The notes beneath the pieces were generated by a model, which searched no databases, was not told where the DNA came from, and was given only the letters and a program-made list of their open reading frames with translations. The position numbers and the translations under genes were made by a program. 64,000 nt of DNA from a bacterium (lineage in GTDB: Bacteria; Oederibacteriota; PGYV01; Palsa-1178): assembly GCA_037138355.1 (NCBI GenBank), contig JBAXIL010000002.1, positions 3,728 to 67,727 of the forward strand, written 5' to 3'. Each line of letters opens with the position of its first letter. The stretch's first letter is position 1. Shown here piece by piece: positions 34,976 through 41,810 of the stretch.

Positions 34976-35052
34976 TGGTCGGGGTGACTGGTCTCGAACC
35001 AGCGACCTCTCGCACCCCAAGCGAGTGCGCTAGCCAACTGCGCTACACCCCG
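34976..35052 (-). tRNA. tRNA-Pro (anticodon GGG), 77 nt with encoded CCA
   Basis: On the minus strand it reads CGGGGTG-TA-GCGC-AGTTGGCTA-GCGC-A-CTCGC-TTGGGGT-GCGAG-AGGTC-GCTGG-TTCGAGA-CCAGT-CACCCCG-A-CCA. The cloverleaf folds, with C1-G72, G37, the T-loop TTCGAGA and GGG at anticodon positions 34-36. Confidence 0.9.
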
Positions 35053-38618: not shown

Positions 38619-38702
38619 AATACCCTTTCACAAATATAGTAATGCCAAAATACGTCAGTAAAGACGCTTAGTTAAGTATTATATGGCATAAATGATATAA
38701 AG

Positions 38703-38747
38703 CAAGAAAAAAAGGCATTAAATAAAGCAGTATATTCTGCTTTATTC
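38703..38747 (-). terminator. candidate rho-independent terminator downstream of the secretion ATPase gene
   Basis: In mRNA sense AUAAAGCAG-AAUAUA-CUGCUUUAU followed by UUAAUGCCUUUUUUUC. The U-tract is slightly displaced from the stem. Confidence 0.4.
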
Positions 38748-38778
38748 ATGTGGAGAATCAACATAACTATTAATTTGG

Positions 38779-40737
38779 CTATATCCTATCTACTCTTTTT
38801 AAATCTCCTTCAATTCTGTTATTGTCACTATTTTTAGATTCATGAAATCTATACACATCATGCATAAGTATAGTGTCGCCTTCCATGCCAGTTATCTCTG
38901 TTATATGTGTTATTTTTCTGCTTCCATCTTTTAACCTTGCTTGCTGAACTATCACATTTATTGCACTTTTTACCTGTTCTCTTATGGCTCTTACAGGAAG
39001 CTCTACTCCTGACATTAGTACCATAACTTCTATTCTCGACACTGCATCTCGCGGAGTATTAGAATGAATTGTTGTCATAGACCCATCGTGCCCAGTGTTC
39101 ATAGCCTGCAACATATCAAGTGTTTCCTCACCACGACATTCGCCTACAACTATTCTATCAGGTCTCATACGCAAACAATTTTTAACCAAATCCCTTATAG
39201 TTACTTCCCCCCTGCCTTCTATATTTGGAGGTCTTGCTTCAAGTCGAATTACATGTTCCTGCAATAATCGAAGCTCTGCAGAATCCTCAACCGTAATTAT
39301 ACGCTCATCCTTCGGAATAAAAGAAGATAATACATTCAAAAGAGTTGTCTTTCCAGAACCAGTTCCACCAGATATTAAAATGTTCTTCCTTTTTAATACC
39401 GCCTCTCTTAGATATTCAACTGCTTCCTGACTGATACTGCCATAATTTACAAGATCCTCTGCTGTTAATTTTTTTTCAGAAAACTTTCTGATAGTCAGTA
39501 TAGGTCCATCTAACGAAAGAGGTGGAATAATAGCATTAACTCTCGAACCATCTGACAGTCTGGCATCCACATAAGGCATGGACTCATCTATCCTACGCCC
39601 TAAAGGTAATACTATTCTTTCTATAGTGCGCATTACATTTTCATCATCTGTAAATCTTTTTTCAGAAACAAATAACTTTCCAGCTTTTTCAATATATATT
39701 TCATTGTGCCCATTTACCATTATCTCGCTTATGCTTGGATCTTTTAGTAATTCTTCTATGGCACCCAAACCTGTTACTTCATCAAATATTTCCGTCACAA
39801 ATATTTCCCTCGTATTTCTGTCAATCATTGATGGATTGAGTCTATCAAGTATCTCTCTTATTTTATTTTTAATTTCACAAAATATTTTTATTTTTTTGTC
39901 TGGGTGAGTAAGTGCATCCTTTTCAAGATTTTTTATGTTTATCTCATCAAATAATAATTTATTTATTGTTTTTTTCAATCCCGCTTCCACTTCGTATTTC
40001 ACAGTAAGTATATTATCTTTTGATTGTATTTTGCTTTGTTTTGGACTTATTGTTTGTAATTCCATAATATACAAGTGTTGTTTCGATGCCCCTTCAAGAA
40101 GAATAGCAGCAGTATTCTTGACTACTTTAGTGAATGCATCTTTTCTGTTTTTCAAACAATAAATCTCTCCATTATTGGCTGTTTCTTCAACTGCCTTGCA
40201 ATAAGGAATTACCTCTATAACTTTGATATTATTAAACCCCTGTTGTAAATCGGCAACCGACAACAGCGTATTATTGGCTTTATTAATAAGGACATTAACG
40301 ACAGCGGCAGGATAACGCATTTCGAGAAGTGTCATAGCAGTATGACTTGCATATTTCATATCATAAGGATTTAATGCAGCAGGTATTAATATGGTATCAG
40401 ACATATCAAGCAAAGTTTGAGCTGGAAAGCCTTCAGTATCAATAAGAAGCACATCAAGAAAGCTATAAAAATGCTCTATTGTGTTTTTCCACCCCGTATC
40501 CCAAAATAGATAAAATTTTTCCTTATCAAGCTTATAATTTGTGATATCTACAAAAGATTTGATAGCGTGATCATTTTTAGGATTTAAAATTATTTTTGTA
40601 TCATAAATATGTTCCGCTATTTCAAGAACACCTACTTTAAGTCCGTATTCGTGTGCCATTACAGAAGCAAGATTCAGAGCAATAGTAGTTTTACCTGCTC
40701 CATTTTTTTTATTTAGCAAGGTAATAATTTTTTTCAT
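38779..40737 (-). CDS. fusion protein: N-terminal ParA/MinD-like (CpaE/TadZ-like) domain plus C-terminal CpaF/TadA-family secretion ATPase
   Basis: 652 aa. Residues 1 to about 220 contain a deviant Walker A (LNKKNGAGKTTIALNLA) of the ParA/CpaE type. The C-terminal roughly 430 aa are CpaF/VirB11-like with Walker A (GGTGSGKTT), Asp box and His box (TIHSNTPRD). Confidence 0.8.
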   Translation of the reverse strand: MKKIITLLNKKNGAGKTTIALNLASVMAHEYGLKVGVLEIAEHIYDTKIILNPKNDHAIKSFVDITNYKLDKEKFYLFWDTGWKNTIEHFYSFLDVLLIDTEGFPAQTLLDMSDTILIPAALNPYDMKYASHTAMTLLEMRYPAAVVNVLINKANNTLLSVADLQQGFNNIKVIEVIPYCKAVEETANNGEIYCLKNRKDAFTKVVKNTAAILLEGASKQHLYIMELQTISPKQSKIQSKDNILTVKYEVEAGLKKTINKLLFDEINIKNLEKDALTHPDKKIKIFCEIKNKIREILDRLNPSMIDRNTREIFVTEIFDEVTGLGAIEELLKDPSISEIMVNGHNEIYIEKAGKLFVSEKRFTDDENVMRTIERIVLPLGRRIDESMPYVDARLSDGSRVNAIIPPLSLDGPILTIRKFSEKKLTAEDLVNYGSISQEAVEYLREAVLKRKNILISGGTGSGKTTLLNVLSSFIPKDERIITVEDSAELRLLQEHVIRLEARPPNIEGRGEVTIRDLVKNCLRMRPDRIVVGECRGEETLDMLQAMNTGHDGSMTTIHSNTPRDAVSRIEVMVLMSGVELPVRAIREQVKSAINVIVQQARLKDGSRKITHITEITGMEGDTILMHDVYRFHESKNSDNNRIEGDLKRVDRI

Positions 40738-41729
40738 TCCTCAAAATCCTGACCAACTATCTTTGGAGTAACAAATATGACGAGCTCTGTTTTTATTTCC
40801 GTGTTTGAATTGGATTTGAATAGTTCGCCCAACAGAGGTATGCCTGACAATACCGGCACGCCAGATGAAACCTTTACCTCTTGGTTCTCAATTAAACCAG
40901 CTATTACGACAGTATTATCTGAATCAACATTAATACTTGTTTCAGCCCATCTTGTTTTTATGGCAGGAAATATATTTGTCCCCAAAGTGACTGCATTGGC
41001 ATAATCAAGATTGCTAACTTCCGCTCTAATCTGCGCTTCTATACTATTTTGCTTAGTGATTTTAGGTTCAACCTCAAGACTGACACCATATTTTTTCCAA
41101 GAAACACTTGCCTGTCCGACTGTAGAAACAGTAACTATAGGTACTTCCCCACCTGATAAAAAACTTGCCTTTCTTCCATTAGCTGCAAGTAATTTTGGTT
41201 TAGCAAGTATCTTGGCATAATTATTTTTTACAAGAAAATCGACTAACAAATTTAGCTTGCCTCTATTAAAGTCAGTTCCAAACAATTTAATAAGAGGTGG
41301 ATTTTGTTCTATTGCATTTAATGACGATACAGGCAGACCACTTTCCGGAATTGGACCTGACAACAAAGCAGGCCAGTTAACTCCGAACTCCGCTCCATTA
41401 ACATTAGCAATTTCAAGTATTTGCACATTAATTTCGATCATGGAATCAGAGACATTTGAATTTTTAACATTAACTATTAATGTTTTCTGTCCATCCGAAG
41501 TGGTTATATTTATTACTGAAGTACCTGTTTTTTTTGCTTCGAGGATGATTTCTTCATCTGATAGGATTGTGGCCATAGCTACTGAATTATTGACAACTTC
41601 TATTGACTTTGGTTTATCAATCTTTATTACTCTTGATGTGCCTTCCTTAATAGTAATCTCACGAGAAATAGCAAAAATAGACTGTAATAATAAAAATGAA
41701 AATAAAAATAAATAAATTGATTTTTTCAC
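40734..41729 (-). CDS. short secretin (CpaC/RcpA-like, type II/IV secretion family)
   Basis: 331 aa with a signal peptide, an N-domain and the secretin C-domain (VPVLSGIPLLGELFKSNSNTEIKTELVIFVTPKIV). It overlaps the ATPase start by 4 nt. Confidence 0.8.
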   Translation of the reverse strand: MKKSIYLFLFSFLLLQSIFAISREITIKEGTSRVIKIDKPKSIEVVNNSVAMATILSDEEIILEAKKTGTSVINITTSDGQKTLIVNVKNSNVSDSMIEINVQILEIANVNGAEFGVNWPALLSGPIPESGLPVSSLNAIEQNPPLIKLFGTDFNRGKLNLLVDFLVKNNYAKILAKPKLLAANGRKASFLSGGEVPIVTVSTVGQASVSWKKYGVSLEVEPKITKQNSIEAQIRAEVSNLDYANAVTLGTNIFPAIKTRWAETSINVDSDNTVVIAGLIENQEVKVSSGVPVLSGIPLLGELFKSNSNTEIKTELVIFVTPKIVGQDFEE

Positions 41730-41810
41730 GCTCTGCCCCTCTATATTTTATTTTAATGCCCCTATGGTTCGAGATTATATATTATACCTTCCTTACCGTC
41801 AACCAAATAA

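Follow-up and report, generated by a model that had tools for sequence, protein, structure and literature searches.

A secretin gene and a fused TadZ-TadA motor gene as probable parts of a dispersed Tad pilus system in Goldiibacteriota-related bacteria

Tad (type IVc/Flp) pilus systems are almost exclusively encoded at a single locus, with scattered ones being very rare (Denise et al., PMC6668835). In Caulobacter, CpaE is required first, for the localization of the secretin (CpaC), and more generally TadZ is the recruiting hub of the Tad components. A fused version of this hub has been reported in Bdellovibrio bacteriovorus as an 'atypical TadZA hybrid protein', whose TadZ and linker part binds the polar hub RomR (bioRxiv 10.64898/2026.07.08.737194, July 2026). 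According to the same preprint the tad loci of strain HD100 are dispersed, with an isolated rcpA-tadA two-gene module and a separately encoded tadC; TadV is absent from the tad loci of this species, its Flp pilin is processed by the type IVa pilus (T4aP) peptidase PilD, and PilZ genes are found near its tad genes. Here we analyze a pair of adjacent genes, encoding a secretin and a TadZ-TadA (CpaE-CpaF) fusion, from a 64,000-nucleotide stretch of contig JBAXIL010000002.1 (assembly GCA_037138355.1), which we refer to as the window. Comparison with related loci indicates that the two genes very probably specify two parts of a Tad pilus machine that is dispersed over at least three loci, i.e. that they are the products of a split operon.

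The secretin and fusion genes are kept side by side in 10 loci (the window, L003, L004, L087-L092 and L099) of a clade that we label Goldiibacteriota-related from the names of the homologues. Comparison of these loci along with L093, 11 in all, revealed three genomic contexts for the pair. In the first of these (type A: the window, L088 and the identical L099, L089, L090 and L003) the gene order is birA-NUDIX-MTHFS / secretin-fusion / (PilZ)-der-plsY. The second (type B), seen in three Goldbacteria-type loci, has the order Flp-Flp-TadE-TadG-TadE-x-RcpC-secretin-fusion, with the pair forming the 3' end of a pilin operon. In the third (type C: L087) the pair is flanked by nrdDG and metK. In L093 a transposase gene follows the pilin half, whose last gene is RcpC. 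Neither open reading frame (ORF) is disrupted in the window or in any relative, and both genes show purifying selection, with a proportion of nonsynonymous differences (pN) of 0.15 versus a saturated synonymous proportion (pS) of ~0.8. Indeed, pN is far below the saturated pS in every domain, including the N-terminal domain of the fusion (0.23 versus 0.82 against L089).

No genes for T2SSF platform proteins, pilins, RcpC or an A24 prepilin peptidase were detected in the annotated parts of the window (1-23 kb and ~29-64 kb), and a local probe scan of the 64 kb in all six frames, which alone covered ~23-29 kb, likewise recovered none of these four. The same holds for the 13 kb past the right end of the window and the ~5 kb past its left end. 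Nor did these regions show anything else connected with pili, type II secretion or Tad, including TadE and TadG. A TadG profile derived from the sister operons returned only 35 matches, two of which are on contigs that carry the isolated pair, namely P0254 (a 1,707,679-bp contig) and P0271 (a 908,139-bp contig). The P0254 contig is the closest long-contig relative and has the same housekeeping synteny as the window. The surroundings of P0254 (L100) encode two Flp-size proteins, one of which has a classic G/MTEY processing motif, followed by TadE, a helix-turn-helix (HTH)/transposase-like insert, TadG, a second TadE, a 238-aa protein and RcpC. Neither a secretin nor an ATPase is encoded within this cluster, which shares its contig with the pair at a distance of 95,220 bp. 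An absence of RcpC from the long contigs with the isolated pair, which had been considered, was ruled out as a false negative of the word-based probe, given that RcpC is present in L100. The preliminary description of this locus had noted its flanks, namely der after a hairpin and a divergently oriented MTHFS gene, and had taken the pair to be locally orphan, which is indeed the case in the searched parts. Its proposal that the partners are encoded elsewhere is now the best reading, given the pilin half on the contig of the syntenic relative. Its notion of a minimal, previously uncharacterized export device, by contrast, runs counter to the presence in that relative, 95 kb from the pair, of a Flp/TadE/TadG/TadE/RcpC cluster lacking precisely the secretin and ATPase, an arrangement that the description itself had named as grounds for reading the pair as a split operon.

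In the case of the window's own genome, a TadG-related protein, MEI7542421.1, which is 43% identical to P0254, is encoded on a 34.3-kb contig. Its accession comes ~670 numbers after those of the window proteins (MEI7541708-755), and the protein has the same set of sources as these. Because of this shared accession block MEI7542421.1 is probably part of the same metagenome-assembled genome (MAG) as the window, which suggests that this MAG also holds the pilin half.

The first gene of the pair (40734..41729, minus strand) codes for a 331-aa protein, recognized in the ORF listing and by Pfam and NCBIfam profiles as a compact secretin of the CpaC/RcpA type. It starts with a predicted signal peptide, VKKSIYLFLFSFLLLQSIFA (41670..41729, minus strand), which was read by eye from the sequence rather than called by a predictor. 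This is followed by a T2SS-T3SS_pil_N domain, the N-terminal domain typical of Tad secretins, at residues 23-88 (41466..41663, minus strand; PF13629, E 1.9e-08), and by the secretin pore domain at residues 166-325 (40755..41234, minus strand; PF00263, E 2.6e-45), both scoring above their gathering thresholds. Among solved secretins, 8jvb (E 2e-35) and the Tad RcpA structure 8odn (E 1e-23) come closest in sequence, and judged by such similarities the protein is a Tad secretin of the CpaC/RcpA type. RcpA/CpaC secretins form a 13-14-mer outer-membrane channel, often aided by a pilotin (TadD/CpaO). We also observed very short secretins preceding TadZ-TadA fusions elsewhere, namely a 315-aa version in an FCPU426-like MAG (L006 3109-4056) and a 240-aa version, essentially the pore domain alone, in an Elusimicrobiales MAG (L030 8178-8900). 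Compact secretins seem to accompany fused motors in several candidate phyla.

The second gene (38779..40737, minus strand) encodes the 652-aa TadZ-TadA (CpaE-CpaF) fusion, as established from the ORF listing, Pfam and NCBIfam profiles, alignment and a structure model. Pfam recovers a CbiA/ParA domain at residues 5-191 (E 8.6e-10) and a T2SSE domain (PF00437) at residues 322-599 (E 3.6e-62). An AlphaFold model of the whole fusion based on 28 relatives (mean predicted local distance difference test score (pLDDT) 80.9) divides it into an ordered alpha/beta domain (residues 1-229), a disordered linker, a bundle of helices (244-322) and an ATPase with two lobes. The organization of CpaF into a first N-terminal domain with a 3-helix motif (NTD1), a second N-terminal domain (NTD2) and a C-terminal domain (CTD) has been defined earlier (PMC11300603). 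By alignment and the AlphaFold2 (AF2) model, the helical bundle of the fusion (residues 245-322; 39772..40005, minus strand) is the equivalent of NTD1, and it bears a clade-specific NLEKDALTHPDKK motif; the motor core, comprising NTD2 and CTD, was delimited by Foldseek and alignment at 38782..39771 (minus strand). The top Foldseek matches, over the C-terminal 400 residues, are the Caulobacter TadA/CpaF structures 8rjf, 8rkd and 9e24, at 48% identity and with E values reaching 2e-46 (8rjf). The motor has a Walker A motif (GGTGSGKTT, 457-465), an Asp box (VEDSAEL, 483-489), a Walker B motif (VVGECRG, 530-536) and a His box (TIHSNTPRD, 556-564). All 28 aligned relatives retain these catalytic motifs, whose core residues are invariant. 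The C-terminal part of the fusion is hence a complete TadA/CpaF motor. The best NCBIfam match of the fusion, TIGR03819 (the conjugal-transfer-associated TadA family), scores 333 bits, below the cut-off of 373, in a comparison that says little given that no CpaF-specific model is among the best 25 of 62 families. Beyond the clade, CpaF-family proteins of 775-911 aa from Chloroflexota (Herpetosiphonaceae, Thermoflexus and Ardenticatenaceae; matches P0010, P0012, P0019, P0021, P0025 and P0042-P0046) score like the clade fusions and have no ParA/CbiA match, and many other matches of the fusion search are FHA-CpaF fusions. Because of these long forms and FHA fusions, CpaF can be seen as a motor with diverse N-terminal add-ons.

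The N-terminal domain of the fusion (residues 1-229; 40051..40737, minus strand) is a compact TadZ/CpaE-like domain with the MinD/ParA fold, as supported by AF2, Foldseek and sequence alignment, and is joined to the motor by a disordered linker (residues 230-244; 40006..40050, minus strand; pLDDT <50). When modeled alone with AF2 it yields a complete MinD/ParA fold (pLDDT 92.4, predicted template modeling score 0.91), and Foldseek superposes it on MinD, FlhG, FleN and ParA with template modeling (TM) scores of 0.7-0.8 and E ~1e-11. By sequence its best match in the PDB is marginal (E 2e-3). A CpaE that a canonical tad locus encodes as a protein of its own has an ATPase domain aligning end to end with residues 3-221 (E 4e-11). 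The deviant Walker A motif KKNGAGKTT (residues 10-18; 40684..40710, minus strand) aligns in register with KGGSGKTT of ParF, and the domain keeps the signature lysine K11, the P-loop lysine K16 and a Walker-B-like hhhhD motif, while D100 and N152 are invariant in the family alignment. The atypical Walker A consensus of TadZ has been given as K/RGGxGxS/T (bioRxiv 10.64898/2026.07.08.737194). Against this the window version reads K-N-G-A-G-K-T-T, with the signature K/R and second G kept, the first G replaced by N, and a MinD-like P-loop lysine present. Among the relatives this motif varies, as in KSGSGKT, KGGMGKT, KTGSGRT and ANGGCGST. The ORF listing reproduces the gene coordinates, lengths and 4-nt overlap given in the preliminary description, and the quoted motifs KKNGAGKTT, GGTGSGKTT and TIHSNTPRD are all in place; its secretin, ParA-like and CpaF domain calls are borne out by Pfam, with NCBIfam agreeing in kind. 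It was right to call the N-terminal domain ParA/MinD-type and TadZ/CpaE-like, but 'degenerate' overstates the case, as both K11 and K16 are kept and the fold is complete (pLDDT 92). The alternative it had raised, of an ordinary CpaF extension without a ParA fold, is contradicted by the above superpositions.

The provenance of this N-terminal domain is indicated by its relatives. In the fusion its ATPase domain begins already at residue 2, i.e. there is no receiver-like N-terminal domain before it, and its reading frame continues into that of tadA; the cpaE of canonical loci is the gene immediately before cpaF. Among 1.84 billion representative proteins an exhaustive search recovered only 43 relatives of the domain at E <= 1e-3. 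Leaving aside truncated fusions, the majority are ~375-450 aa long and match through their C-terminal two-thirds. All six relatives scanned with Pfam have a C-terminal ParA/AAA_31 domain, and three of the six combine it with a receiver-like N-terminal domain, which is the CpaE/TadZ layout; the Response_reg matches are in the separate ~400-aa CpaE proteins P0184, P0199 and P0206. From the alignment with CpaE and the receiver/ParA layout of these relatives we conclude that, as far as sequence can tell, the domain derives from TadZ/CpaE and is a compact form that has lost the receiver-like domain. The compact TadZ domain is a rare, narrow lineage. Its occurrence as a stand-alone protein was considered and ruled out, as the short matches proved to be truncated fusions.

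The CbiA+T2SSE architecture itself is found in dozens of MAG proteins that are 41-89% identical to the window fusion. Several of these proteins carry the names Goldbacteria/Goldiibacteriota, Firestonebacteria or FCPU426, and JGI labels some of the proteins 'CpaF family ATPase / MinD-like ATPase'. Single-ORF fusions were confirmed with Pfam in a Bdellovibrio sp. (740 aa), Elusimicrobiales (738 aa), WOR-3 (810 aa) and an FCPU426-like MAG (702 aa), and further ones were recognized in Pseudobdellovibrionaceae (725 aa) and Omnitrophota (719 aa) from ORF calling and sequence. Pfam confirmed a secretin gene directly 5' of the fusion in each of these loci other than that of WOR-3. In light of these forms and of the B. 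bacteriovorus TadZA (bioRxiv 10.64898/2026.07.08.737194) the earlier premise of TadZ and TadA being invariably encoded as two polypeptides no longer holds. Full-length tblastn matches in reference genomes of many phyla were also tried as candidate fusions, but ORF calling showed most of them to be adjacent cpaE and cpaF genes. The N-terminal domain of the window fusion gave no phmmer match at E 1e-3 with the Pseudobdellovibrionaceae and Bdellovibrio sp. fusions and only 9 bits with that from Omnitrophota, so that in terms of sequence it has little or no relationship to the other fused forms that were compared. In a neighbor-joining distance tree of the CpaF domain, computed without support values, the clade lies apart from the Bdellovibrio group; on account of this separation the clade fusion may have arisen independently of the Bdellovibrio TadZA.

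At the level of gene organization the stop codon of the secretin gene and the start codon of the fusion gene overlap by 4 nt as ATGA (40734..40737, minus strand; read from the sequence), which suggests translational coupling of the secretin and the fusion ATPase. The top-scoring promoter of the region is a sigma-70-like site, TTGACG-17-TATAAT (41774..41802, minus strand), with 11 of 12 positions matching, that ends ~45 nt 5' of the GTG start of the secretin; it is a consensus match only, the number of promoter-like sites in the region being no higher than expected from shuffling. A single intrinsic-terminator-like hairpin (12 bp, 3 G-C pairs) with a T-run is present at 38709..38748 (minus strand), ~30 nt past the stop codon of the fusion and ahead of der, though taken by itself it is weak, as shuffled sequences average 1.2 such sites versus the one found. 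With der downstream and the divergent MTHFS upstream, and because a near-consensus promoter precedes the pair while a hairpin and T-run follow it before der, the pair is a self-contained bicistronic operon with its own promoter and terminator. An Rfam scan revealed no riboswitch or other RNA at the locus.

With regard to the public record of the fusion gene, GenBank accessions in this region follow the gene order (gpsA ..740, der MEI7541742, secretin MEI7541743, valS ..748), so that der and the secretin have consecutive numbers and the intervening 652-aa fusion has none. Records of the exact fusion protein come from ENA and Logan only. The public GenBank annotation thus seems to omit the fusion gene or to flag it as a pseudogene, although its ORF is intact and conserved.

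Several further features were noticed around the tad genes of the clade. Three type A relatives have a small PilZ gene between the fusion and der (L003 12104-12454, L089 15699-16049 and L090 4705-5070); the PilZ domain binds cyclic di-GMP. No PilZ homolog was found in the 64 kb of the window, where the gap between the fusion and der is 160 bp (38619-38778). Transposase and HTH mobile-element genes are present at or near the tad break points in relatives, including a Y1_Tnp gene near the pair (L003 4861-5448), another directly after RcpC (L093 11457-12440) and an HTH_38 protein inside the pilin cluster (L100 8855-9820); such elements may have mediated the tad rearrangements. The pilin operons of the clade also always have, between the second TadE and RcpC, a ~240-aa protein without a Pfam match (L004 7423-8154; L100 11627-12343, 238 aa; L093 8151-8861), which is a candidate for a clade-specific Tad component. 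As for the window at large (1-64000), nearly all genes are on the minus strand and the GC skew is uniformly negative (~-0.2), as expected of a stretch lying wholly on one replichore, with a positive AT skew only at 12-14 kb, over TRAP-transporter membrane genes. ARAGORN predicts a tRNA-Pro(GGG) at 34976-35052; a gathering-threshold Rfam scan of the whole window matched nothing, the tRNA family included.

Based on the above we propose the following scheme for the function of the pair. The first gene would provide the outer-membrane secretin channel of the CpaC/RcpA type, and the second a TadZ/CpaE-type MinD/ParA domain tethered by a flexible linker to a hexameric TadA/CpaF motor. The TadZ-like domain could bind nucleotide and dimerize, or dock on a positional cue, so that no separate TadZ would be needed to bring the motor to the assembly site. 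As the Caulobacter CpaE suggests by analogy, the domain might also license secretin assembly at that site. The CpaF core, acting on an inner-membrane TadB/TadC platform encoded elsewhere, would polymerize the Flp pilin and possibly also drive retraction, with the pilus passing through the RcpC ring and exiting via the secretin. The co-transcription and translational coupling of the secretin with the TadZ-motor fusion fit the dependence of CpaC on CpaE in Caulobacter. That the fusion localizes the ATPase without a separate TadZ, which the preliminary description had offered as one option, is accordingly the best reading of the architecture, with the localizing role of the N-terminal domain being presumed by analogy.

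Certain observations weigh against such a dispersed machine. We built a hidden Markov model (HMM) of T2SSF from six Pfam-verified TadB proteins and used as control 80 canonical, unrelated cpaF loci obtained from a genome-contig scan with the full-length family alignment, which brought up mostly generic cpaF genes and not a single close relative. The HMM has matches within the fetched flanks of 69 of the 80 control loci and none in ~280 kb of clade DNA, beside any of the three kinds of loci; no A24 prepilin peptidase (PF01478) was found beside any of them either. We infer the existence of the platform and peptidase genes, as we do the joint working of the pair with a pilin locus 95 kb away, and a complete Tad machine is accordingly putative for every clade genome. 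The link of MEI7542421.1 to the window comes from accession numbering, not from an assembly record, and the window genome itself was read over ~82 kb. Finally, the P-loop lysine of the N-terminal domain is replaced by R or S in several relatives, and, to go by this, ATP-dependent behavior of the domain may not be general across them. The precomputed Pfam tables of the clade loci also list neither PF00482 nor PF01478, and a metagenome-contig scan with a clade-specific linker probe gave five loci, none of which has a T2SSF match. Because none was matched in the ~280 kb of clade DNA, the platform and peptidase genes must occupy one further (third) locus or more, unless they are shared or have been replaced. 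By analogy with Bdellovibrio, the prepilin peptidase may be encoded apart or shared with another system.

That no TadB, TadC or TadV was found in any clade locus would also be in keeping with a reassignment of the pair to another type IV filament (T4aP, a type II secretion system (T2SS)-like system or a competence pilus), using a PilC-type platform and PilD in place of TadB/TadC/TadV. The processing of the B. bacteriovorus Tad pilin by the T4aP PilD (bioRxiv 10.64898/2026.07.08.737194) and the swapping of prepilin peptidases between systems (Denise et al., PMC6668835) point in the same direction. However, sharing of a platform by Tad and T4aP is not documented in the literature examined. Moreover, the motor, with its 48% identity to Caulobacter CpaF, is a typical CpaF, the secretin has the Tad-type pil_N domain, and the co-evolving partners in sister genomes are Flp, TadE, TadG and RcpC, making reassignment unlikely. 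Distinctly improbable, in our view, is that the clade assembles Flp pili without canonical TadB/TadC, with the fusion docking on a non-T2SSF or borrowed platform and the bicistron being an independently evolved 'channel plus self-positioning motor' cassette.

The possession of its own promoter and terminator, the movement of the pair as a unit between unrelated housekeeping contexts and the want of a platform gene near any clade locus could be accommodated by an autonomous minimal secretin-ATPase exporter that makes no pilus, perhaps with an unrecognized inner-membrane partner. Yet a cytoplasmic ATPase and an outer-membrane pore would be physically unconnected without inner-membrane and periplasmic parts. 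Furthermore, the orthologous pair ends a complete pilin-RcpC operon in Goldbacteria, and genomes with the isolated pair have the pilin-RcpC half elsewhere, so that we hold an exporter of this kind to be highly improbable. A decaying, non-functional remnant of a rearranged tad operon might be suspected from the apparent lack of a GenBank protein record for the fusion (between der ..742 and secretin ..743) and from the transposase genes near the break points in relatives. Against this stand the intact ORFs in the window and all relatives, the invariant catalytic motifs, the low pN in every domain, and the retention of a near-consensus promoter, translational coupling and a terminator, and decay is accordingly the most far-fetched of the explanations considered here.

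On the interpretation as a split Tad operon, the seemingly orphan secretin-ATPase device makes up a third of a Tad pilus system whose genes are dispersed. A conserved three-way split of tad genes is mildly unusual, with Bdellovibrio as precedent, and the combination of a TadZ-TadA fusion with scattered tad genes would thereby be extended from Bdellovibrio to uncultivated Goldiibacteriota-related bacteria. In the absence of multi-locus models and profiles for fused TadZ-TadA, such systems would be missed or called incomplete by TXSScan/MacSyFinder and PGAP, and the fusion gene may even drop out of the annotation.

Compared with the canonical Tad/Cpa loci (Aggregatibacter tad, Caulobacter cpa and Pseudomonas rcp/tad), the clade shares the order rcpC-secretin-(tadZ)-tadA, the pil_N secretin and a CpaF motor with NTD1, NTD2 and CTD, and its sister loci likewise encode Flp pilins with the G/xxxEY motif and TadE/TadG minor pilins. 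In contrast, the canonical TadZ/CpaE is a separate ~400-aa protein with a receiver-like N-terminal domain, whereas that of the window is fused and lacks the receiver; TadB/TadC normally follow tadA in canonical loci (69/80 with T2SSF in the fetched flanks) and are not found beside the clade pairs. With MinD, FlhG, FleN and ParA, the SIMIBI ATPases with deviant Walker A motifs, the N-terminal domain shares the fold, the signature lysine, the P-loop lysine and the Walker-B-like hhhhD motif. It differs from MinD/ParA in having K and N in place of G10 and G12 of the KGG motif and in being covalently joined to a secretion ATPase, and its nearest relatives outside the clade are CpaE/TadZ-like, with the receiver+ParA rather than the MinD layout. 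Unlike the window pair, which is cut off from pilin and platform genes, the Bdellovibrio fusion belongs to the main tad locus and is directly followed by tadB, and the N-terminal domain of the window version is shorter (~229 aa), with a ~25-residue deletion relative to other fused forms in alignment A1. Nevertheless, Bdellovibrio and the clade have in common scattered tad genes, an isolated rcpA-tadA module, tad loci without TadV and PilZ genes nearby, and in both the window and Bdellovibrio sp. (L057) the fused TadZ-TadA directly follows the secretin gene.

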